The position numbers and the translations under genes were made by a program. A DNA stretch of 51,584 bases from Deinococcales bacterium (GTDB lineage Bacteria; Deinococcota; Deinococci; Deinococcales; JAAFIG01), in NCBI GenBank assembly GCA_031414595.1, contig JANNVX010000017.1, positions 1 through 51,584 of the forward strand, in the 5' to 3' direction. Below are positions 2,679-47,536 of this stretch, one piece after another (the first letter of the stretch is position 1; each line of letters starts with the position of its first letter). The notes beneath the pieces were generated by a model. The model was not told the DNA's origin and ran no database searches. It saw only the letters and a program-made list of their open reading frames with translations.

Positions 2679-4181
2679 TCAATCGTCATTGGCTTGTTTA
2701 GCCCCAGTCGCGTAAGCAACCATTTCTGATTGTAAAATTTGCCGATTTTTTAATTCTGCGACGATCGCCCCTTGGCGCATCACCAATACCCTATCGCAAA
2801 GGCGCTCGAGATCAGCAAATTCTGAGGAAATCAGGATAATCGCCATACCTTGGCTGGATAACTCGAGCAGCAATTGTTCAATGTCGTGTTTTGCGGCAAT
2901 ATCTACACCTTTGCATGGGTCGTCAAGAATCAGGACTTTGGGATGCTGAATTAAGGCTCGGGCGATAAGGAGTTTTTGTTGTGTACCAGTAGATAAGTGT
3001 TGGCTTGCTTCTGAATTGGTCTCGAGTCGCATGGCATTGGTGATGTCGAGAAAAGTTTGATGTAATTTTTTTAGTATTAAGAAACCGTATTGTGTGTGTT
3101 GTTTTAAGACAGGCATAACAACGTTTTCTTCGGCATTAAGACTTCTAAAGATACTTTGTTCAGTATTATTTTTACTGACCAATGCCATTCCAGCCGCTAT
3201 TGCATCGGTGGGTGATTTTATGGCAATAGTTTGATTGTTGAGTCGAATCTGCCCACCTGTTAAGCGTTCTACACCATAAAGTAAATTCATCAATTGGCTA
3301 CACCCAGCACCAACTACACCTGCTAAACCAAGAATTTCGTTTTGGTGTAAACGAAAATGAGTTGGTTCAAGATGAACTCCATCGGTCAAGTCGCGGGTTT
3401 CAAGGACAATGGTTTGAAGACTTGGTTTGACTTGGCGTTTAGGCAGTGCAAGGTCGCGTCCAACCATCATCTGTACAATGGTTTTGCTATTGATGTCATC
3501 GCGTTCCAGTTCGGCGACATGTTCACCATTTCGCAGTACAGTCACACGGTCAGCTAAAGAATAGACTTCGCTCATGCGGTGCGAGGCGTACAAAATCGCA
3601 ATCCCTTCTTGGCGTAATTGAGTAATAATTTCAAAAAAAGTCGCGGTTTCAAAACTCGAGAGTGCAGCCGTTGGTTCATCGAGCAGTAAAATTTGTCCTC
3701 CAAGCATCAACGCTTTAGCAATTTCTACAATTTGTCGTTCGGCAACACTCAGTTGCCAGACTTTGCTATCGGAGCTAAAAGATGCTTGTAGACGTTCAAG
3801 CATCACTTCAGCTTCGATATTCATTCGTTTTGTGTCGGTAAAAATACCGCGTTTTAATTCGCAACCCATGAACATGTTTTCGGCAACCGTTAATTGCGGC
3901 ACAAGGTTAGGTTCTTGGTACATCAGGTTAATTCCAACGGCTCGAGCCGCCAGTGGTGAACGAATTGGGGTGTTTTGCTGCTGCACTCGGATTGTACCTT
4001 GGTCAGCTTGGATTGCACCTGCTGCGATTTTCATGAGCGTGGATTTACCAGCCCCATTTTCGCCCATCAGCGCATGGATTTCTCCTGCATATAAGGCGAT
4101 ACTCACATTATATAAAGCCCGAACCGCAGTAAAGGCTTTGCTGATGTTGGTCATTTCTAAAATGGGGGCTGCTTGTTTCAT
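2679..4181 (-). CDS. Sugar ABC transporter ATP-binding protein (RbsA-like, two NBDs)
   Basis: GENGAGKST, LLLDEPT; second NBD degenerate (LSTGTQQK, ILDDPCKG). Confidence 0.9.
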   Translation of the reverse strand: MKQAAPILEMTNISKAFTAVRALYNVSIALYAGEIHALMGENGAGKSTLMKIAAGAIQADQGTIRVQQQNTPIRSPLAARAVGINLMYQEPNLVPQLTVAENMFMGCELKRGIFTDTKRMNIEAEVMLERLQASFSSDSKVWQLSVAERQIVEIAKALMLGGQILLLDEPTAALSSFETATFFEIITQLRQEGIAILYASHRMSEVYSLADRVTVLRNGEHVAELERDDINSKTIVQMMVGRDLALPKRQVKPSLQTIVLETRDLTDGVHLEPTHFRLHQNEILGLAGVVGAGCSQLMNLLYGVERLTGGQIRLNNQTIAIKSPTDAIAAGMALVSKNNTEQSIFRSLNAEENVVMPVLKQHTQYGFLILKKLHQTFLDITNAMRLETNSEASQHLSTGTQQKLLIARALIQHPKVLILDDPCKGVDIAAKHDIEQLLLELSSQGMAIILISSEFADLERLCDRVLVMRQGAIVAELKNRQILQSEMVAYATGAKQANDD

Positions 4182-5309: not shown

Positions 5310-6887
5310 ATGCAGACTACCTATCCTGTCGCACCAACTTTGATGCAGCCACCAAGCAAAATACCTCTACTGGAAATGCAGGGTATTACCAAGCGTTTTC
5401 CGGGTGTAACTGCGTTAAATTCAGTGTGCTTTACTGCTTTTGCAGGCGAAGTTCATGCTTTAATGGGCGAAAACGGAGCTGGTAAATCCACGCTCATGAA
5501 AATCCTAACAGGAGTCTACAGTACCGACGAAGGCAGTATTTTTTTAGCCAAACAACCCTTTATGCCAAGCAATCCACGCAGCGCTCAACGCAGTGGACTG
5601 GCAATTATTCACCAAGAACTCAACCAAGTCCCTGAACTGAGTGTGACTGAAAACTTTTTTTTGGGACGTGAACTCAAAAATTCGTTTGGTCTGATGGATC
5701 ATAAAAAAATGCGCTTTGAAACTATTCAATGGTTAGCCGAACTTGGTTTACACCTCGAACCAGAGCGTTTACTAAAGCACCTACGCGTTGCCGAACGACA
5801 ATTACTCGAGATTGCCAAAGCCCTGAGCTTGAATGCCAAAGTCCTGATTATGGACGAACCAACCACTGCCCTTAGTGGTGAGGAAGTCAGCCAATTGTTT
5901 ACCGTCATTGACCGACTGCGGGTTTCCAATATCGCTATTATTTATATTTCGCATCGGATGGACGAGATTTTTACCATTTCAGACCGAATAACCGTGCTGC
6001 GCGACGGGCATTATATTGGTACGGACACCGCCACTAATTTTAGCCGTAATCGTTTAATCCAAATGATGGTCGGACGTGAACTCAGCGACCTTTACCCAAG
6101 CAGTCAACGCAATCTAGGACAAACAATTTTAAGGGTTAAACAGCTTTGTGTTCAAAAAAGCCAAGGTAAACAAGCCCTTTTGAACCTCGAGTTTAGTGTC
6201 GCGGCTGGCGAAATTGTTGGATTAGCAGGTTTACTCGGAGCAGGACGAACCGAGACACTCGAAGCAATTTATGGTGTTCCAAATAAGAAAACGGTGGCTG
6301 GAAAAATCGAAATTGCTGGTAAACTTGAGTCAATGAAATCACCACACCATGCCATTAAAGCAGGTATTGGTTATGTGACCGAAGACCGCAAAGGGCAAAG
6401 CCTAATTCTGGCTCGCAGTGTCAGCGAAAACACCAGTTTAGCCGCCCTAAAGCGTTTTACGAAAGGATTATTCTTAAACTTAAAACTCGAGCAACAAGAA
6501 AACTTGGTTGTGATTCAAAAACTTCGAGTCAAAACCCCCAGCCTCGAGACCCCAGTTTCGGCGTTGTCGGGTGGTAATCAACAAAAAGTGGTACTGGCAA
6601 AATACTTGTTAAATTCACCACGATTGTTGCTGCTTGACGAACCTACCCAAGGTATTGATGTTGGTGCAAAAGCCGAAATTTACGCAATTATTAACGAACT
6701 GGCACAAGCCGGAACAGCCGTTTTACTTGCTTCAAGTGATATGCCTGAATTATTAGCCCTGTGCGACAGAATTCTAGTGATGTGCGAAGGCAGAATTACT
6801 GGTCAACTCAGTCGCCAAGAAGCAACTTCAGCGCGTATTCTTGAGTTCGCAACCCAATTCAAACCCCAGTATCAGGAGACTTTATGA
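5310..6887 (+). CDS. Sugar ABC transporter ATP-binding protein (RbsA-like)
   Basis: GENGAGKSTL, LSGGNQQK, LLLDEPTQGIDVGAK. Confidence 0.95.
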   Translation: MQTTYPVAPTLMQPPSKIPLLEMQGITKRFPGVTALNSVCFTAFAGEVHALMGENGAGKSTLMKILTGVYSTDEGSIFLAKQPFMPSNPRSAQRSGLAIIHQELNQVPELSVTENFFLGRELKNSFGLMDHKKMRFETIQWLAELGLHLEPERLLKHLRVAERQLLEIAKALSLNAKVLIMDEPTTALSGEEVSQLFTVIDRLRVSNIAIIYISHRMDEIFTISDRITVLRDGHYIGTDTATNFSRNRLIQMMVGRELSDLYPSSQRNLGQTILRVKQLCVQKSQGKQALLNLEFSVAAGEIVGLAGLLGAGRTETLEAIYGVPNKKTVAGKIEIAGKLESMKSPHHAIKAGIGYVTEDRKGQSLILARSVSENTSLAALKRFTKGLFLNLKLEQQENLVVIQKLRVKTPSLETPVSALSGGNQQKVVLAKYLLNSPRLLLLDEPTQGIDVGAKAEIYAIINELAQAGTAVLLASSDMPELLALCDRILVMCEGRITGQLSRQEATSARILEFATQFKPQYQETL

Positions 6888-7879
6888 TTGCCAATCCCAC
6901 CATCAGCAAACGTAACCCTTGGCTCGAGACAGCCCTGCGCTTTCAAGGCTATTTAGGTCTGCTGATTGTCTTTTTGATCGGACTGATTTTTTCACCAGTC
7001 CGCGATGGCAGCAATTTATTTGTAGATCCAATCAACCAAGCCAATATCCTGCGTGATATTGCAGAAACAGGGATTATCGCCGTTGGCATGACCTTTGTGA
7101 TTCTGGTTGGCGAAATAGACTTGAGCGTTGGATCAGTTTTAGCCCTGACTGCCACCTTTAGCGCCGCCATGTTGGTGCGCTTAAACCTTGATACGGGCGT
7201 GGTGATTGTGCTTGGCTTGGCGGTTGGTGGGCTATCGGGTTTAATCAACGGAGTAGTGACCACATGGGTACGAATTCCATCGTTTGTGGTGACACTAGCC
7301 ATGATGAGTTTTGCAAGGGGATTTGCGCGTTTAGCCCTGGGTGGTTTAGCCATACCAGTGATTGCTGGAACAGGCGGTGCGCCAGATAGTTTTTTTGTCT
7401 TTGCTCAACGCTGGTTTGGAATTCCAGTGCCTGCTATTGTGATGCTGGTCGTGGCTATCATCAGTGGTATTATTTTGCGTTTTACACCATTTGGTCGCCA
7501 TGTTTATGCTGTCGGTGGTAATCCGATTGCGGCTCGTTTATCTGGTGTGCGGGTAGATCAGGTTAAAATTATTGTCTTTGTAATCTGCGGTGTTTTAACC
7601 GCTCTAGCAGGGATTATTCATGCCGCCCAACTCAACCAAGGTAGCCCCAACGATGGCGTGGGTTACGAACTCAACGCTATTGCTGCTGTGGTGATTGGCG
7701 GCACAAGCCTAATGGGTGGAATCGGCACATTGGCTGGTTCGATTATTGGCGCATGGATGCTAGGCATGATTGACAATATCTTAGGCTTAAACAACATCAA
7801 CTCAGACGTGCAACTCCTGATAAAAGGAGCTTTGATTGTTGCCGCAGTTGGCTTACAACGCATTCAACGCCGAGCCTAA
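6884..7879 (+). CDS. Sugar ABC transporter permease (RbsC-like)
   Basis: GEIDLSVGS, GGNPIAARLSGV, YELNAIAAVVIGGTSL. Confidence 0.95.
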   Translation: MIANPTISKRNPWLETALRFQGYLGLLIVFLIGLIFSPVRDGSNLFVDPINQANILRDIAETGIIAVGMTFVILVGEIDLSVGSVLALTATFSAAMLVRLNLDTGVVIVLGLAVGGLSGLINGVVTTWVRIPSFVVTLAMMSFARGFARLALGGLAIPVIAGTGGAPDSFFVFAQRWFGIPVPAIVMLVVAIISGIILRFTPFGRHVYAVGGNPIAARLSGVRVDQVKIIVFVICGVLTALAGIIHAAQLNQGSPNDGVGYELNAIAAVVIGGTSLMGGIGTLAGSIIGAWMLGMIDNILGLNNINSDVQLLIKGALIVAAVGLQRIQRRA

Positions 7880-8010: not shown

Positions 8011-8985
8011 ATGAAAAAGACTCAATTCTTTGCCATTGCCGCAGGTCTTGCCAGTGTAGCACTTTTTGGTCTGCAAGCCAGCCAAGCCCAAAGCAAAACC
8101 TTTGTGATTGGTATGGCACAAGCCAATAACGCCGAGCCTTGGCGCGAAGCAATGAACGCACAACTGACCTCGGCTGCCAAAAAAGCTGGAATGCAACTGA
8201 CCATCGCTGATGCCCGCCAGGACAATTCCAAACAAGTTGCCGATGTTGAACGCTTTATCCAACAAAAAGTTGATTTGTTAATTATTTCGCCAAACGAAGC
8301 CGCACCATTAACAGCCGTGGTTAAACGGGCATATGATGGTGGAATCCCAGTGATTGTGCTTGACCGCGCTGTTCTGGGCGATGCCTACACGATGTTTATT
8401 GGTGCAGACAACAAACTGATTGGTGAAAAAGCAGGTACTTATGTTAGCAAATGGTGCCGTGAGAACAAACGTATTCCTTGCAATGTCCTCGAGATTACTG
8501 GTCTTTCTGGTTCGCCACCCTCGGCAGACCGTGGCAGTGGCTTCCGCAAGGGTTTAGCCCTGAACCGCAACGCTAAAATTATCGCCAGCCCGACCTCGGA
8601 ATGGCTGCGCGAAAAAGCTGTCGCCGTGGCTGCTGCTGCTTTCCAAGCCAACAGAAAAATTGACGTAGTATACGGACACAACGACCCATCAACCGAAGGT
8701 GGTTACTTAGCCGCCAAAAACGCCGGAAAAGACCTCTCAAAAATCTTATTCGTCGGAATTGACGCGCTACCATCACCAGATGGCGGGATTATGGCAGTCA
8801 TCGAAGGTCGTTTGGGAGCAAGTTATGTTTACCCAACAGGCTCAGCCGAAGCCATCGAATGGGCAGGAAAAATCCTAACCCAAAATGCCAAACCACCCAA
8901 GAAAGTGGTCTTAGGAACAACCGAAGTCTACCCAAGCAATGCAATGGCAGTCTGCAAGCAATACGACTGCCCAGCCGCAAGATAA
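8011..8985 (+). CDS. Sugar ABC transporter substrate-binding protein (RbsB-like)
   Basis: AAGGAG RBS before ATG 8011, signal peptide, VDLLIISP, IPVIVLDR, GHND. Confidence 0.92.
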   Translation: MKKTQFFAIAAGLASVALFGLQASQAQSKTFVIGMAQANNAEPWREAMNAQLTSAAKKAGMQLTIADARQDNSKQVADVERFIQQKVDLLIISPNEAAPLTAVVKRAYDGGIPVIVLDRAVLGDAYTMFIGADNKLIGEKAGTYVSKWCRENKRIPCNVLEITGLSGSPPSADRGSGFRKGLALNRNAKIIASPTSEWLREKAVAVAAAAFQANRKIDVVYGHNDPSTEGGYLAAKNAGKDLSKILFVGIDALPSPDGGIMAVIEGRLGASYVYPTGSAEAIEWAGKILTQNAKPPKKVVLGTTEVYPSNAMAVCKQYDCPAAR

Positions 8986-41358: not shown

Positions 41359-42108
41359 TTATTTTGCAGGTGGTGCATTCGGGTCTGTCGGTTCGGCGGG
41401 TTTCGGGTCGGTTGGTTTCGGGTCGGTTGGTTTCGGGTCTGCTGGCGTTGTGGGCTTTGGTTCGGCTGGTTTGGGGTCTTCAATCCCCGGTTGTTTGCCA
41501 AAATCATAATTGCTTCGTAAAATCTCAAAATCGGCATTGTCCACTTTGCCATCGCCGTTAAAATCCCCTTTGATTCCGCCTGCCGTTTGGCTTTTGCCAA
41601 ATTCTCTGGCAAAGACTTCAAAATCATCTATATTGACTTTGCCATCGGCGGTTAAATCGCCGTCAGGTGCGTATTGCTGACGCAACAAGGTAATATCGGC
41701 TTCGGTGATGCTGCGTTTACCATCCCAAATCGGCTCGAGCGGTAAACCAAGGCGAATCCCAGTCTCGAGCAGTAAAGCACTTTCAAGGTCAGTTGTGTCT
41801 GGATTAATGCTGACCACAATGCTTTCTTTGCCGTCGCTACCCGTCTCGAGAATTGTGCGGGTTGCAAGGTCTGGATTCAGTTCTGGTTCTGTGCCACCCC
41901 AACGAAATTGCAGTGCCGTCCCCACTTTCGGTGCATCTACTTTAAGCGTGGTACTTGGCACAGCTTGCCATTTAGCGAAGGCTTCACGCACCAACTTCTC
42001 GAAGTTCTCGGGAGCGCCATCTTTGACCACAGTAAAGGCGAAAGGTGCAGCTAAAACTGAGAATGAAAGTACGCAAAACAGAAGATAGAACTTCAAATTT
42101 TTCTTCAT
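41359..42108 (-). CDS. Secreted protein: degenerate matrixin-like domain + type I dockerin + Pro-rich tail
   Basis: GDLTADGKVNIDDF / GDFNGDGKVDNADF duplicated Ca-binding loops; LLLETGIRLGL in place of HExxH; DPKPT repeats. Confidence 0.75.
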   Translation of the reverse strand: MKKNLKFYLLFCVLSFSVLAAPFAFTVVKDGAPENFEKLVREAFAKWQAVPSTTLKVDAPKVGTALQFRWGGTEPELNPDLATRTILETGSDGKESIVVSINPDTTDLESALLLETGIRLGLPLEPIWDGKRSITEADITLLRQQYAPDGDLTADGKVNIDDFEVFAREFGKSQTAGGIKGDFNGDGKVDNADFEILRSNYDFGKQPGIEDPKPAEPKPTTPADPKPTDPKPTDPKPAEPTDPNAPPAK

Positions 42109-42590
42109 CGCACCACCCCAAGGATTTTTTCGAGCGCTGCAATAAACGAGGCTCTGGTTACGGGTTTATTCTCGAGTTGCACGGGTTTGGCATCGGTGTT
42201 TAGAACTGTTGTACCTTCAAGTTGATATGCGCCTTGGTTAAAACCCACAATCGGACTGTCAAAGTTTTTGGTGTACAGTAAAAAAATCCATTCTGAACCG
42301 ACTTTGAAACTTGGTGCGCCCTCGAGTCTGACTTTATCTGAGCCATAAATTGCAAAACTGGGGGTTTCGGCTGTTTTGGGCAGTAAACCCTCACCTCGCC
42401 AGTATTGTTTGGTCTCGAGCAAATAGACAATCCACGGGCGCTTATTACGTTCTTCGCGTTTGACTTCCTTAATCGTGGCTCGGACAATCACTTCGGCTCG
42501 CTCAACTTGGGTTTCTAGGGACAGTTTTGGGTAGGTGGTGGCAAGGGCAAGGGAGAGAAGGCAAAAGGCAAAAGGCAAAAGGCGCTTCAT
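42105..42590 (-). CDS. Secreted hypothetical protein
   Basis: Signal peptide, LSLETQVERAEVIVRATI, P.FKVG.E..FL, VGFNQG.Y. Confidence 0.7.
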   Translation of the reverse strand: MKRLLPFAFCLLSLALATTYPKLSLETQVERAEVIVRATIKEVKREERNKRPWIVYLLETKQYWRGEGLLPKTAETPSFAIYGSDKVRLEGAPSFKVGSEWIFLLYTKNFDSPIVGFNQGAYQLEGTTVLNTDAKPVQLENKPVTRASFIAALEKILGVVR

Positions 42591-43348
42591 GGTTTGTCTC
42601 CTGTGGGTGGCGTGGTGGGAGAGGTTGGGGCTGGTGGTTTTGGTAACTCGAGGGCGGCTTTACTCAGTAAAACATTCTTAGCCCTGAGTTCAAAACCTAT
42701 TTTCCCCTCGAGTTTTAAGGGTTTTGCCAGTGCCAGCACCACATAAAAAACCGTGGCTGGGCGAACGCTGGGAATATCTTCGGATAGAGCAGCATCTATT
42801 CTTAAAACATTGCCCTCGAGACGAGAGAGCATTAAGGGTCTGCCCGCACTTGGCTCGAGGCGTTTTAGACTTGCTCCGCTTGGCAGGGAAATTGCGACCC
42901 GCATTGAACGGACATTCTTAGGGATTTTAAGGATGAAGGGCAGCCGTACTTCGTCGCGTACTTGGGTCGGAGGGATGCTCCACTCGAGACTCGGGGCGGG
43001 TAAGTTACGCACTTCTAAACGCAAATCTTGAAATTTATTGGCATTGCGTGAATCTATAATCTCGAGTGTGAATTCAAAAGTTTTTTGTTCATTGATTTTT
43101 AATTGCAATTTTGGTGTGCCTTGTAACTTTGAGCCTTGCAAAGAAATACCATCTGGTAATTTCCCCTTGGCAATTTTTAAGGTGTATGCCCGTTGTCCAC
43201 CAGTCACCCGTAATTCCTCGGAATATGATTCGTTGTTGTACGCCAAAGTCAAAGCCGTGTTGACCACGGTTATGGTATTGGCATCATTTTTGGCATCATT
43301 TGTGCCACAAGCCACAAGCAATGCCAAGAAGAAAAGAAGAAAACGCAT
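42587..43348 (-). CDS. Lipoprotein with putative Ig (He_PIG-like) domain and possible cohesin-like beta domain
   Basis: Lipobox LVAC, VTGG...Y...GKLPDGISL...LQGTP. Confidence 0.65.
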   Translation of the reverse strand: MRFLLFFLALLVACGTNDAKNDANTITVVNTALTLAYNNESYSEELRVTGGQRAYTLKIAKGKLPDGISLQGSKLQGTPKLQLKINEQKTFEFTLEIIDSRNANKFQDLRLEVRNLPAPSLEWSIPPTQVRDEVRLPFILKIPKNVRSMRVAISLPSGASLKRLEPSAGRPLMLSRLEGNVLRIDAALSEDIPSVRPATVFYVVLALAKPLKLEGKIGFELRAKNVLLSKAALELPKPPAPTSPTTPPTGDKP

Positions 43349-43423
43349 TCAAAGCAGTCTAAACAGGCTTTATGAGGACAACTCGAGACTTGGCTGAGTT
43401 GCTTGTCCTCGAGCAAAACAGTT

Positions 43424-43581
43424 TGGAAATTAGCGTTTGTTCTGTCAGTGAAAACTCCCGAAAATCGCAATTCTTTAGCGCTTAGCTTGGCAGTATTATC
43501 GCCTGTGCTGTCAGTGGACAAAGTATGTTATCGTTTGTCGTGTCAGTGACCATAATTCTATTAGCGTTTATACTGTCAGTG
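43424..43581 (+). repeat. Transposon end with five TnsB-type binding sites
   Basis: ATTAGCGTTT-N4-TGTCAGTG consensus at 43429, 43474 (weak), 43495, 43527, 43560. Confidence 0.85.
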
Positions 43582-43607
43582 ATTTTTTATGATATAATCA
43601 CACGATA

Positions 43608-44192
43608 ATGGCAACAGCGTACTCCAGTGGAATCGTAAGTCGCAAAGGGCATGTTCTATTAACCCGTCTTGGAGTAACTTTACCCTTTGAAAGTACCATC
43701 GAAGAAGCATTTGCGCGTATTCTGGATTTTGATGCCAGTGTTGTCGCTGTTCAACGAGCCGAACCAATCAATTGTTATTTGTCCGACGGACAATCTCATG
43801 CTTATACATCCGATTTTGTAATCACATTCGCCAACCAATCAAGAATTGTGGTGGACTGTAAGCCTCACAACTTACTTCAGGCAATTTTGCAAGAAGAACT
43901 TGAAAAATGGCAAAGTCGCAGCGACATCTACCGTCGCCAAGGTACACCATTATATATTGTCACAGACAGAGATTTGCCTGAATCAGCTAGAGAACAAGCC
44001 AGCGCTTTTGGACCATTCTATAATGTTGGCGTAGATGTCACAATAAGAGACAAAATCTATGAATTTCTAAAAAGCCGACCTGCCATTCCACTCAGTGTGC
44101 TGCGTGAGCAAGTTAAGGTGCTTGCCCAGCACCTTAACCTTGGAATGTCTCGAGGCTCACGAGGTCTCAACAGCATTTTGCTGGGGCGATGA
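43608..44192 (+). pseudogene. tnsA: TnsA-like endonuclease (N-terminal domain), probably truncated; frame ends inside CRISPR repeat 1
   Basis: FESTIE...LDFD..V....EPI....G..HAYTSDFVI...VVDCK matches TnsA_N PD-(D/E)xK pattern; extended -10 TGaTATAAT at 43590-43598. Confidence 0.8.
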
Positions 44193-44348
44193 TTGAAACA
44201 TTGCTGTATCAATCAGTGGAGGTAAAGATAGCCAGTCTCAACAGCATTTTGCTGGGGCGATGATGGAATTTTTGCGCTGGAAAGTGTATAATCGCCGTCT
44301 TAGGTTATTCTAAGTTGATTGAAACCGATTTACATAAGGAATTACAGA
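44164..44348 (+). CRISPR. Minimal CRISPR array: repeat, 35-nt spacer, degenerate repeat, then atypical repeat + 23-nt self-matching spacer
   Basis: GTCTCAACAGCATTTTGCTGGGGCGATGATTGAAAC (44164-44199); copy 44235-44270 with 3 mismatches at the 3' end; GTCTTAGGTTATTCTAAGTTGATTGAAAC (44297-44325). Confidence 0.8.
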
Positions 44349-44393
44349 GTGCTTAGCTTGAATTTCAAGGCTTTATGGATGTTACATAATAAT

Positions 44394-44542
44394 CACTGAC
44401 AGCATAAGCGATAAAAATTAGGTAAAATTCCATGTAAATCATGTCTATAGCAGCTTAAACCTACATTTTGACTTCCACTGACAGAATAAACGCTAATGAC
44501 AGCCTCAACGCTAACCACTGACAAAATCAACGCTAATTGCCA
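44394..44542 (-). repeat. Opposite transposon end with four TnsB-type sites
   Basis: CACTGACA-N4-AAACGCTAAT-like at 44394, 44476, 44497, 44516; terminal CA at 44541-44542. Confidence 0.85.
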
Positions 44543-44586
44543 CAGTTCGTACAAACGTCATCCAAAAAAACGGTAGACTATCTACC

Positions 44587-45210
44587 ATGTCTGTAATTCC
44601 ATACGTGATAGAACAAACAGGACGCGGTGAACGTGTCTACGACATCTACTCGAGACTTCTCAAAGACCGCATTATTTTTGTCGGCACACCCATCGAAAGC
44701 CAAATGGCGAACACGGTGGTTGCCCAATTGCTGCTGCTCGATTCGCAAAACCCCGAACGCGAGATTCAAATGTTTATCAATTGCCCCGGCGGAGAAGTTT
44801 ATGCTGGGCTTGCGATTTATGACACGATGCAGTTTGTCCGCGCTCCCATTCGCACCACTTGTGTTGGTATCGCCATGAGTATGGGCAGCGTTCTGCTGAT
44901 GGCTGGCGCAAAAGGCAGACGCACTGCCCTGCCCAATAGCCGAATTATGATTCATCAAGGCAGTGCTGGTTTTAGAGGCAATACCCCCGACCTCGAGGTT
45001 CAAGCTCGAGAAGTTCTGGCATTGCGCGACATCATGACTGGGTTATATGTCAAACACACTGGGCAATCTGGCGAAAAACTAATGCGCGACATGGAGCGCG
45101 ATAATTTTATGACCCCAAATACCGCCAAGGATTACGGCTTAATTGATGAAGTGGTCGAAATCATGCCCAAAAGCATTGGTGACGCACTCAGAGGCTCAGA
45201 TGAGCTTTAG
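44587..45210 (+). CDS. clpP: ATP-dependent Clp protease proteolytic subunit
   Basis: [39 protein letters not shown]. Confidence 0.97.
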
Positions 45211-45243
45211 GACTCGAGCGCTAAAAACTCAGGAGCATTGCTA

Positions 45244-46470
45244 ATGGCTCGTTGTTCTTTTTGTGGTAAAGCCGCCCATGAAGTTGAGCATTTAATCGAG
45301 TCGCCGCGTGGCAGTGCTTGGATTTGCAATGAATGTGTGGCTCAGGCTTCGGCAATGCTGACGGCGGCAAAACCAGCCACACCCGCTAAGTCCGAACCGT
45401 TTGTTCTCGAGCATGTACCAACCCCAAAAAGCATTAAACGCCACTTGGATGAATTTGTGATTGGGCAAGATGCAGCTAAAAAAGCGGTGGCAGTGGCGGT
45501 TTTTAATCATTATCAGCGCTTGCTACACCCAGAAGCCGAATTGCAAAAATCCAATATTTTACTGATTGGCTCGACTGGCACAGGTAAAACCCTGATTGCC
45601 GAAAGTGTTGCCAAAATGCTCGAAGTGCCATTTGCAATTGCCGATGCCACCACCCTGACCGAAGCCGGTTATGTCGGTGATGATGTCGAAAATGTGCTGG
45701 TGCGTTTACTTCACGCGGCGGGCATGGATGTTGGTAAAGCCGAGCGCGGTATTATTTATATAGACGAAATAGATAAGGTGGCTAGAAAGTCCGAATCGGC
45801 AAGCATCACCCGAGATGTTTCCGGCGAGGGTGTGCAACAAGCCTTACTTAAACTTCTCGAGGGAACGGTTGCCAATGTGCCACCACAAGGCGGACGTAAA
45901 CACCCTGGAGCAGAACTGGTGACAATCAACACCCAGAATATCCTCTTTATTTGCGGTGGCGCATTTGATGGCTTAGAAACGATTGCCAAAGCCCGCTTAA
46001 ACCAAAACATTGTTTCGTTCGCTAGGGTTGCCGCCAACGAAAACAGTGCGGTCGAGTTTATCCCCGAAGACCTGATTAAATTCGGCATGATTCCAGAGTT
46101 CGTTGGGCGTTTACCACTGGTTGTGGCGCTGAGAACCCTTGATGAAGCCGCCCTGATTTCGATTCTGACCGAGCCAAAAGGCGCACTGGTTAAGCAGTAC
46201 AAACAACTCTTTAAGTTGGCAGGAGTCAACCTCGAGTTTGCGGTGGAAACCCTCAAAGAAGTGGCAGCCAGAGCCATTGGGCGCGGTACTGGCGCACGCG
46301 GCTTGCGGGCTGTTCTCGAGCCAATGATGACCGAAATAATGTTTGAACTGCCCTCGGATAGTGTTACAAGCCTAAGCATTGAGCCTAAGCATTTAGATAC
46401 ACCGCTTGATTGTCTACCAACACAGCATCTGTTACAGCTTGAAGCCACTACACTTAAGAAAAGCGCTTAA
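45244..46470 (+). CDS. clpX: ATP-dependent Clp protease ATP-binding subunit
   Basis: CSFCGK..ICNEC Zn finger, [34 protein letters not shown]. Confidence 0.97.
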
Positions 46471-46534: not shown

Positions 46535-47431
46535 TTAATCTTCGCGGCGCTTGGAAAATCCGTGGTCACGGCGTTTGCCACCAAAACCACTTGAACTGCT
46601 CGAGCCACGCGAGTCATCACGGGCTGGACGCGAATCATCACGGGGTCTAAAGCCACCTTCACGCGGGGCGCTGCTGCCACCAAAGCCACGTCCAAAGCCG
46701 CCGCCTTCACGCGGCGGGCGCGAATCATCACGGGGTCTAAAGCCACCTTCACGGGGGGCGCTGCTGCTGCCACCCTCTCGAGGACGAAATCCACCCTCTC
46801 GAGGTGCAAAGCCGCCACCGCGAGAATCGCCGCCACCACGGGAGTCTGGACGGAATCCACCTTCACGGGGCTTAAAGCCACCATCACGGCTTCCACCACC
46901 AAAGCCGCCACCTTCGCGGGGCTTAAAGCCACCTTCACGCGGAGGGCGCGAATCATCACGCGGACGGAATCCACCTTCACGGCTTCCGCCACCAAAACCG
47001 CCACCTTCACGAGGACGGAATCCACCTTCACGGGGCTTAAAGCCACCATCACGGCTTCCACCACCAAAGCTGCCACCTTCGCGGGGCTTAAATCCACCTT
47101 CGCGTCCAAAACCACCTTCGCGTTTCGGGGCTGGGCTGTCGCCAATCGCGGCTTTTTCGAGCTTCTTTTCTAGTTTACGGACAATTGTGGTCAGTTCTTC
47201 GATTCGAGCGGTTAAAATACCCAATTGCAATTCGATACCACTGACCACTTCTTCATCCATCCCGTCGAGGTCGGCATCGGTTGCCAATTCATACGCCTCT
47301 TCGGTATCATCATCGGTCAAGGACAAATCTTGATCTTCAGTCATGGACAATGTATCGTCCTCTAAATCAGTTTCATCTGGGGTTAAGTTCTCTTCGATAC
47401 CATCGTTCACTTCTTTTTTCTTTCTCGGCAT
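46535..47431 (-). CDS. Low-complexity protein: acidic N-terminus, coiled coil, long REGGF(R/K)P repeat tail
   Basis: AGGAG RBS before ATG 47431; D/E-rich segment, LGILTARIEELTTIVRKLEKKLE, many REGGF repeats. Confidence 0.8.
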   Translation of the reverse strand: MPRKKKEVNDGIEENLTPDETDLEDDTLSMTEDQDLSLTDDDTEEAYELATDADLDGMDEEVVSGIELQLGILTARIEELTTIVRKLEKKLEKAAIGDSPAPKREGGFGREGGFKPREGGSFGGGSRDGGFKPREGGFRPREGGGFGGGSREGGFRPRDDSRPPREGGFKPREGGGFGGGSRDGGFKPREGGFRPDSRGGGDSRGGGFAPREGGFRPREGGSSSAPREGGFRPRDDSRPPREGGGFGRGFGGSSAPREGGFRPRDDSRPARDDSRGSSSSSGFGGKRRDHGFSKRRED

Positions 47432-47536
47432 AAAACTCCTATAAACACCGCCCGAGTTCTCTCGAGCATGCAAGCGATAACTGTACACAAAACCCGTGGG
47501 CTTCCCTAGGGCAAAAAGGAATCACCACTTACTTAT

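Follow-up and report, generated by a model that had tools for sequence, protein, structure and literature searches.

A short Tn7-like element upstream of clpP in a Deinococcales genome is probably an internally deleted type I-C CRISPR-associated transposon with a TnsA-TnsB fusion

The stretch of Deinococcales DNA analyzed here, 51,584 nt in length and hereafter called the window, carries a small Tn7-like element directly upstream of clpP, in which a TnsA-like open reading frame (ORF) is found together with CRISPR repeats. The locus raises the question of which kind of transposon this element is derived from, and how such a transposon would have found the start of clpP. In the initial annotation, it was considered an internal deletion derivative of a CRISPR-associated Tn7-like transposon (CAST), with a layout resembling type V-K and possibly of an undescribed subtype. 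The first part of this proposal is supported by a complete relative found in the source genome (G000, a 4.49-Mb assembly) and by a deletion junction at 44129|44130. We conclude, with a probability of roughly 85%, that the mini element arose by internal deletion from a type I-C CAST with a TnsA-TnsB fusion transposase and is non-autonomous. Coordinates refer to the whole window unless a contig is named.

The mini element is 1119 bp long (43424–44542), starts with TGGAAATTAGCG, and ends with CGCTAATTGCCA. Its left end is abutted by a CAGTT at 43419–43423, and a perfectly matching CAGTT at 44543–44547 forms the other copy of the 5-bp target-site duplication. The terminal inverted arms (43424–43450, TGGAAATTAGCG..., and 44516–44542, ...CGCTAATTGCCA) comprise 27 nt and are 85% complementary. 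A 22-nt end motif was detected in four clear copies on the left (43429, 43495, 43527, and 43560) and in four inverted copies on the right (44393, 44475, 44493, and 44515). The initial count of five left copies holds if a degenerate copy at 43476, recovered with a looser pattern, is included. The left, tnsAB-proximal end (43424–43581, plus strand) combines the terminal inverted repeat at 43424–43450 with dispersed TnsB-type sites at 43431, 43476 (weak), 43497, 43529, and 43562, corresponding to +8, +53, +74, +106, and +139. The right, array-proximal end (44395–44542, minus strand) has packed sites at +8, +30, +48, and +130 from the terminus ...TTGCCA. This mirrors the asymmetry of packed and dispersed sites in Tn7R and Tn7L. 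Inverted termini, several asymmetrically placed TnsB-type sites, and a 5-bp duplication are the Tn7-like hallmarks of the element, and all of the bounds, the duplication, the termini, and the 36-nt repeats first reported are present in the sequence. Across the 4.49 Mb, the end motif (≤3 mismatches) gave 17 matches, of which seven belonged to the mini element, two to an end of the complete relative on contig C14, and eight were isolated singles. The mini element is single-copy in this genome. An Rfam scan of 43300–44700 matched no family, and a blastn search of the whole element against a plasmid collection returned no match.

The truncated transposase ORF (43608–44192, plus strand) encodes 194 aa. 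The initial assignment to TnsA is correct regarding domain and fold, as the protein passes Pfam PF08722 (TnsA-like_N) with 28.8 bits (cut-off 26.5; E 1.9e-6), and an AlphaFold model based on 18 sequences (mean predicted local distance difference test score, 85.5) was matched by Foldseek at ranks 1–3 to Tn7 TnsA (1t0f and 1f1z; E 1e-8 to 2e-7) and at rank 4 to 9bw1_M, a chain from a TnsABCD-DNA transpososome entry. As a stand-alone TnsA, however, the protein was misread. Residues 1–174 correspond to the TnsA endonuclease part of a TnsA-TnsB fusion, with 42–45% identity to the N-termini of 820–866-aa TnsAB proteins; in the protein alignment, this homology ends after residue 174 (...VLAQ), and residues 175–194 are a tail translated from the array leader and repeat 1. 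Judging from this alignment, the mini ORF is the N-terminal part of a TnsA-TnsB fusion transposase that was shortened by a deletion. E52, D69, and K85 are invariant in the TnsA alignment, whereas position 83 is D in the mini ORF and E in its relatives; these four are the putative catalytic residues of the TnsA active site. A word-based protein search for longer relatives returned two TnsAB proteins only (41–47% identity), and the corresponding search for near relatives returned only the query's own protein. The TnsA-domain profile matched nothing among the PDB sequences at E ≤ 1.

The point at which the fusion was interrupted can be read from other public runs. The whole stretch is present in four of them, which may be its source. 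Moreover, contigs from X5 on the one hand and from X6 and X7 on the other, which come from two studies other than the source, match 43424–44129 (94–99%), and in all three runs there are contigs that cease to fit at exactly 44129. The X5 contigs differ from the window at 1 of 150 and 4 of 342 letters, and the X6 and X7 contigs are 94–96% identical to it. Past 44129, X6 and X7 continue with a 30-nt consensus that, hand-translated in frame, reads CSYSDLDATL, and TnsAB relatives read (C/R/K)S(L/F)(S/P)(Q/E)(L/I)(N/D)(S/G)(S/T)L at the same point. One X6 contig starts at the left terminus, and its flank is not that of the window. The deletion thus fused codon 174 of tnsAB (44129) with the array leader (44130), the left junction being 44129–44130. 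From these contigs, an undeleted parent seems to exist in nature, and because the parent-like X5 contigs are 98–99% identical, the data suggest that the deletion is young.

What an undeleted member looks like was determined from the complete element on contig C14 of G000. It was located via the match of the mini ORF within an 850-aa open frame (44% identity) and spans 10220–59038 (L007 5220 to L009 14038), that is, 48,819 bp. Its ends are terminal inverted repeats (TGTGAATT.../...AATTCACA), and a CCTAT duplication is found on both sides. The array-proximal sites are located at +8, +48, and +130, with no match to the +30 site. One end encodes an 837-aa TnsA-TnsB fusion and a 275-aa TniB/TnsC protein (PF05621, 2.5e-31). 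The other end encodes, in this order, TniQ (PF06527, 4.5e-16), Cas5c (114 bits; cut-off 85), Cas8c (Pfam Csd1, 196 bits), and Cas7c (277 bits; cut-off 182), and the cas genes pass TIGR01876, PF09709, and TIGR02589. TniQ lies approximately 40 kb from the tns genes and heads the cas operon. After the cas genes follow a three-repeat array, an atypical repeat, and the transposon end, with tRNA-Met 47 bp beyond. By gene content, this element is a predicted type I-C CAST.

The TnsB part of the fusion was recognized by family-level comparison. Single-sequence Pfam matches were weak, and the C14 TnsAB alone matched nothing among the PDB sequences at E ≤ 1e-3. TnsB was matched only by a 12-sequence TnsAB profile. 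Its E-values against the TnsB portions of PseTnsAB and Tn6677 TnsB, which are solved transposases of I-F3 CASTs, were between 6e-18 and 3e-12, and it also matched 9bw1_M, labelled Integrase in the TnsABCD-DNA transpososome, at 7e-6. Mu-transpos_C was found in 12 of 12 family members. Searches of the genome for Cas1 and Cas3 gave matches on C18 and C82 and none on C14. The TniQ query gave a single match on C14, with no second TniQ/TnsD. The cargo of approximately 40 kb includes a GTPase-associated conflict system (GAP1/DO-GTPase1/DO-GTPase2/GASH), accompanied by a SIR2-EAD1 protein. A SUKH-family protein comes after a 3646-aa RHS/PT-HINT protein, and the cargo further encodes a subtilase, a secretin, an Xre-MbcA-type antitoxin, RNase HI, and a beta-lactamase-family protein. 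Compared with this relative, the mini element retains its two ends and the TnsA domain, as well as two repeats, a single spacer, and a homing guide, and the deletion presumably removed the TnsB part, tnsC, the cargo, tniQ, and cas5/8/7. Kinship of the mini element to the C14 family is supported, at the level of sequence comparison, by the shared end architecture, TnsA domain, and repeat type.

The C14 element has relatives in three further genomes of the family (G004, G014, and G010). Going by the lengths of the ORFs alone, these have the same TniQ-Cas5-Cas8-Cas7 order, after which come an array or atypical repeat and the right end. Among the 201 genomes of the order, strong matches to the TniQ query (E ≤ 1e-39) were found in G000 and these three only, and the other 11 matches were weak, partial, and to larger TniQ-family frames. 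When the TniQ alignment, expressed as two peptide patterns, was compared with one genome per species, the three loci obtained were again those of G004, G014, and G010, and absence elsewhere is not established by this search. In G014, contig C418 (L051) carries the attachment guide and a degenerate repeat on the strand opposite the cas genes (approximately 8357–8400), no typical array was found in the element, and two additional ORFs (192 and 482 aa) are located between cas7 and the right end. In G004, the right end on contig C136 (L050) abuts a tRNA gene, of which a second copy of approximately 80 nt lies about 270 bp inside the end. The two copies (reverse view, 6476–6555 and 6827–6905) have the same orientation and show compensatory stem differences.

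The CRISPR portion of the mini element bears on two alternative explanations. The mini array (44164–44270, plus strand), located between the ORF and the right end, comprises two 36-nt repeats that are 71 nt apart, namely, repeat 1 (44164–44199) and repeat 2 (44235–44270), separated by a 35-nt spacer (44200–44234). Repeat 2 is degenerate in its last 6 nt, its 3' end having been removed by a second, small deletion; at 44263–44268, G004, X5, and X6 have 35–190 additional nt. In X5, the array and right end are approximately 98% identical to the window and include an extra repeat-spacer unit and 35 nt that are absent here. The 34 nt between the junction and repeat 1 (44130–44163, plus strand) are not conserved with the G004 relic at clpP and, from their position, are presumably a remnant of the array leader. 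Downstream of the array, a third, partial repeat end (TGATTGAAAC, 44316–44325) completes an atypical repeat (44288–44325, plus strand) with a distinct stem-loop and the conserved 3' end TTGATTGAAAC, and counterparts of this repeat were found in C14, G010, and G014. An extended -10-like box, TGTATAAT (44285–44292, plus strand), was read from the sequence just upstream of it. The box is kept in G004 and G001 and was not called by a consensus promoter scan.

The mini and C14 repeats both consist of a stem-loop followed by an unpaired 3' tail, the mini tail ending in (A/C)TTGAAAC and the shared 3' end being TTGAAAC, and they are identical at 26 of 36 positions. The host also has a canonical type I-C locus on C18 (193403–200850), with Cas3/Cas7/Cas1 and then a few degenerate repeats ending in GGATTGAAAC, a 3' end that the CAST repeats share. 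Two further host arrays with other repeats are located at C82 70753-/C101 1- and at C11 14152-, and a second Cas1 lies on C82.

It could be argued from these host arrays, on C18, C82/C101, and C11, with repeats ending in ATTGAAAC, that the mini element was an ordinary protein-targeted Tn7-like element that passively captured a piece of a host array, its match to clpP being due to chance. We consider this highly improbable. Genome-wide, no repeat other than that of the C14 CAST is within 10 mismatches of the mini repeat, host repeats included, and the Cas7 of the C14 CAST is only 42% identical to the host Cas7. Because the repeat is related only to that of C14 and the host repeats and Cas7 differ, the array is the transposon's own rather than captured cargo, and the refuting case named in the initial annotation, a repeat taken over from a host array, does not apply. 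Furthermore, with the TniQ query no second TniQ/TnsD was found on C14.

The resemblance to type V-K, in the form of a relic of a V-K-like or new Cas12k-type CAST with an additional TnsA, was likewise weighed. It was based on the initial annotation, according to which transposase and array lie at opposite ends and the repeat starts with GTNNCAAC. The elements containing the nearest TnsA relatives, however, encode TniQ with Cas5c, Cas8c, and Cas7c rather than Cas12k, although Cas12k itself was not searched for. In addition, the ORF represents the N-terminal part of a fused TnsAB, whereas V-K elements were themselves described in that annotation as lacking TnsA, and the repeat, with its stem-loop and unpaired tail, ends as the host's I-C array does. 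A V-K-like origin is therefore hardly tenable, and the analogy is withdrawn in favor of the type I-C reading.

Directly after the partial repeat end, a 35-nt homing guide occupies 44326–44360 (plus strand). It matches the reverse complement of 44578–44612 at 21 of 35 positions overall and at 15 of 17 over positions 7–23. This protospacer (minus strand) covers the ribosome-binding region and codons 1–9 of clpP, and its sequence is conserved in G005, G004, and G001. The base paired with guide position 1 is 44612, at a distance of 70 bp from the last base of the element. As proposed in the initial annotation, the array end faces the target. A shifted register of the guide (start 44328, protospacer adjacent motif (PAM) TTC, +68) was also considered and was rejected as primary, as it breaks the repeat boundary and loses the every-sixth pattern described below.

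The flanks of five right-end loci were then compared with the sequences following the repeat 3' end, and a guide matching the flank was found at four of them. For the mini element, the target is the 5' end of clpP, with position 1 at +70 and PAM TGT; for C14, it is tRNA-Met (+69, CTC); for G010, the 3' end of an ABC permease gene (+68, TTC); and for G014, whose guide is on the opposite strand, a tRNA 3' arm (+66, TTC). At all four loci, the PAM-distal end of the protospacer is directed toward the packed-site transposon end. In shuffle tests, a match as good as that of the real guide was obtained in 1 of 2000 cases for the mini element, 6 of 2000 for C14, and 2 of 2000 for G010, compared with 1963 and 151 of 2000 for two ordinary-spacer controls. 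That this match recurs in four independent elements, with offset, strand, and side unchanged, argues further against a captured array and a chance match to clpP.

The mismatches are not evenly distributed. Guide positions 6, 12, and 18 are mismatched in 9 of 12 cells, whereas the other positions within 1–18 are mismatched in 9 of 60 (one-sided Fisher p = 8e-5). In type I systems, every sixth base of the guide is flipped out, and mismatches at these positions are tolerated by a TnsAB-type I-D CAST, according to the available text of PMC9881144. The pattern is a property of Cascade and not of Cas12k, which speaks once more against a V-K-like origin.

The insertion site itself was analyzed by searching 40 relatives with a 2.7-kb region, of which three congeners (G005, G004, and G001) were informative. 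The target gene, clpP (44587–45210, plus strand; PF00574, E 4e-76), is followed by clpX (45238–46470; ClpX zinc finger and AAA_2). G005, the congener most similar to G000 across the insertion region (96% identity on the clpP side), has no element; 25 bp separate its two flanks, and CAGT occurs there once. The empty site that was predicted is therefore found in G005, reading CAGT-CGTAC compared with CAGTT-CGTAC in G000, a 1-nt difference. G004 and G001 have a decayed array remnant and right end at clpP, which are 85–87% identical to 44263–44542, and all four sites (+8, +30, +48, and +130) are present in the right end of the G004 relic. The two relics lie at an equal nucleotide distance from clpP, and they have different flanking pentamers (TCCAT in G004) and separate internal deletions. 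Because these decayed copies have other pentamers and deletions, the site before clpP would appear to have been used repeatedly, or long ago, in this genus.

Two further features of this site were observed. In G004, contig C259 (L022) has a second transposon terminus, ...GCGCTAAATTCCA, at 3244–3273 within the relic, in right-end orientation and 35 bp upstream of the first repeat of the relic, where it adjoins an ABC permease gene; an older element in tandem may have ended here. To the left of the insertion site (43380–43418 and its homologues in G005, G004, and G001), the copy number of a tandem unit of approximately 24 nt, GCTGAGTTGC...CCTCGAGCA, varies: G000 has a single copy, G005 and G001 have two each, and G004 has three.

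The relics also help to decide whether the mini element decayed in place or reached clpP in its present form. In the latter case, it would be a mobilizable, guide-carrying non-autonomous element, moved in trans by full-length relatives with its own homing CRISPR RNA (crRNA) and possibly with a stand-alone TnsA domain. Several features are consistent with this. Both ends are complete, with TG/CA termini and a perfect duplication; the 194-aa ORF is open and has a good predicted TnsA fold, with a promoter-like site at 43546–43574 in the left end upstream of it; the guide retains its -10-like box; the C14 end sites resemble those of the mini element, so that cross-recognition is conceivable; and the deletion looks young. 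On the other hand, the element occurs as a single genomic copy, and no identical mini element was recovered in the near-relative protein search, among the HMMER representatives, or in the plasmid collection. No cognate TnsAB exists in the assembly, the sole family member, that of C14, being 44% identical in the TnsA domain. The relics of G004 and G001 at the same site have different deletions, which points to decay in situ, and the array of the mini element itself underwent a second deletion. Arrival in the present form is therefore considered unlikely. Decay in place is favored because there is one copy per genome and because sister species contain differently decayed copies, and the mini element would presumably be immobile by itself.

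Under the preferred reading of an internally deleted type I-C CAST, the following sequence of events is proposed. In the parent, a crRNA would be made from the atypical repeat and the 35-nt guide near the array-proximal end. A Cas3-less I-C Cascade (Cas5c/Cas8c/Cas7c) with TniQ would bind the matching site at the start of clpP, and TnsC and TnsAB would be recruited and would insert the element 66–70 bp from the PAM-proximal edge, with the packed-site end toward the target and a 5-bp duplication. A later internal deletion would leave the ends, the TnsA domain, two repeats, a spacer, and the homing guide.

Some of the results weigh against this reading. No cas, tniQ, tnsC, or TnsB-domain sequence is found within the mini element, whose subtype is assigned through kinship only, the TnsA domain being 42–47% identical to that of its relatives and the repeat identical to that of C14 at 26 of 36 positions. 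The mini guide is mismatched at positions 1–4, the usual seed, and its PAM is TGT rather than TTC, so that binding of its target by a canonical I-C Cascade would be unexpected. The G010 guide is mismatched at positions 3–6, and at the fifth locus, on C136 of G004, no such guide was found. Such mismatches may have a reason, in that guides unusable by canonical Cascade-Cas3 would protect the host from self-cutting; a type I-C system armed with Cas3, whose repeats have an identical 3' end, is present in this host. The parent-like contigs are short (150–590 nt) and shallow (2–7x), and the continuation seen in them amounts to 30 nt. The exact parent was not recovered in an exhaustive HMMER search of 1.84 billion representatives, in which 64 sequences matched at E ≤ 1e-3 and none besides the query exceeded 49% identity. 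Nor was it recovered with the repeat pattern in metagenome contigs, where all 10 matches were single chance matches lacking a second repeat. Transposition activity and crRNA production are predictions for all members of the family.

A wider proposal, for which we regard the chances as evenly balanced, is that uncultured Deinococcales carry a functional CAST lineage with a six-gene I-C machinery, namely, a fused TnsAB, TnsC, one small TniQ, and Cas5c/Cas8c/Cas7c without Cas6. Such a lineage would home purely by RNA, using "privatized" guides that pair only where Cascade checks; every sixth base would be a mismatch, as would the first bases in two of the four guides. It would thereby coexist with the host's Cas3-armed I-C system without cutting of clpP or tRNA genes, and the mini element would be a recent derivative that carries a guide and may still be moved by relatives.

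Other features of the neighborhood were also noted. Upstream of the element, two secreted or lipoprotein-like ORFs are encoded on the minus strand (41359–42108 and 42587–43348), one with a proline/threonine-rich tail and the other with a He_PIG Ig-like domain. Farther downstream, an ORF of 317 aa (46535–47488, minus strand) consists mostly of REGGF(K/R)P and GGS repeats and resembles an RGG-like low-complexity protein; the antisense ORF overlapping it is a repeat artefact.

Interest in RNA-guided transposons comes from their possible use for the insertion of large DNA without any double-strand break, and type I-C Cascade has the fewest genes among type I effectors. Taken alone, the mini element is a decayed copy of modest interest, and its value lies in exposing a gene-complete, array-bearing I-C CAST family. 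In this respect, the suggestion of an undescribed subtype needs to be qualified. Putative type I-C CASTs were reported in 2021 from nine metagenomic loci (Rybarski et al. 2021, bioRxiv 10.1101/2021.08.16.456562), so the subtype as such is not new. As described in the accessible text of that preprint, these loci are, like C14, Tn7-like with Cas5, Cas8c, and Cas7 and without Cas3 or Cas1/2. They differ in that separate TnsA, TnsB, and TnsC are directly followed by TniQ, whereas C14 has a fused TnsAB and a TniQ that heads the cas operon at the other end, and in that no array, self-targeting spacer, or attachment site was detectable in them, whereas C14 has a mini-array and an atypical repeat with an attachment guide. 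This distinction is made from the published descriptions, and an overlap of the C14 family with the nine loci is possible. Type I-C CASTs are still treated as putative and array-less in the available text of Hu et al. 2024 (PMC11300857).

Since the I-C CASTs were reported without arrays, guides, or attachment sites, as far as these sources go, their targeting could not be stated so far. The C14 family supplies ends, a duplication, an array, an atypical repeat, and four guide-target pairs, from which a spacing rule (+66 to +70), candidate PAMs (TTC and CTC), and a mismatch pattern are obtained. Its function is thereby directly testable. The family also raises the question of how a CAST escapes autoimmunity when its host has a system of that same subtype, as cross-use of crRNA is possible via the shared 3' end.

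Among other CASTs, those of type V-K contain Cas12k and a trans-activating CRISPR RNA and lack TnsA. ShCAST, which belongs to this type, shares with the C14 family only the general layout of a short array near one end, and its TnsC appeared only as a weak PDB match (E 6e-4). Work on I-F3 CASTs by Petassi and colleagues in 2020 reportedly dealt with atypical repeats and attachment-site spacers. I-F3 and I-B1 CASTs resemble the mini and C14 elements in placing an atypical repeat beside a self-targeting guide for vertical homing, with mismatches tolerated, and they differ from C14 in that their TnsA and TnsB are not fused, their effector depends on Cas6, and they target other genes. The concept of such attachment-site spacers in I-F3 and I-B1 is set out in the available portions of PMC9881144 and PMC11300857.

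In a survey of 6,549 Tn7-like elements (PMC8649781), the accessible text names only Proteobacteria and Cyanobacteria as CAST hosts. No published description of a TnsAB-type I-C CAST or of a Deinococcota CAST was found in the literature covered, which did not extend to subscription journals and supplementary tables. The C14 family thus extends CASTs to Deinococcota. Fused TnsAB is known from cyanobacterial elements that include the I-B2 (PmcCAST) and I-D (McCAST) CASTs (Hsieh & Peters, PMC9881144). According to the parts of that paper available, PmcCAST and McCAST have, like the C14 family, a fused TnsA-TnsB, a Cas3-less type I effector, a small TniQ, a short array, and tRNA attachment sites. 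In the cyanobacterial systems, however, a second, large TnsD-type TniQ homes to tRNA genes and the I-B2/I-D effectors include Cas6 (PMC9881144), whereas C14 has one TniQ match and I-C genes and apparently homes by guide RNA; it occurs in Deinococcota rather than Cyanobacteria, and the sequence relation is remote. The tolerance of mismatches at every sixth guide position is common to the I-D CAST (PMC9881144) and the C14 family, where the pattern was read from sequence. McCAST inserts 75 ± 6 bp downstream of the PAM (PMC9881144), compared with 66–70 bp to the last base of the element here.

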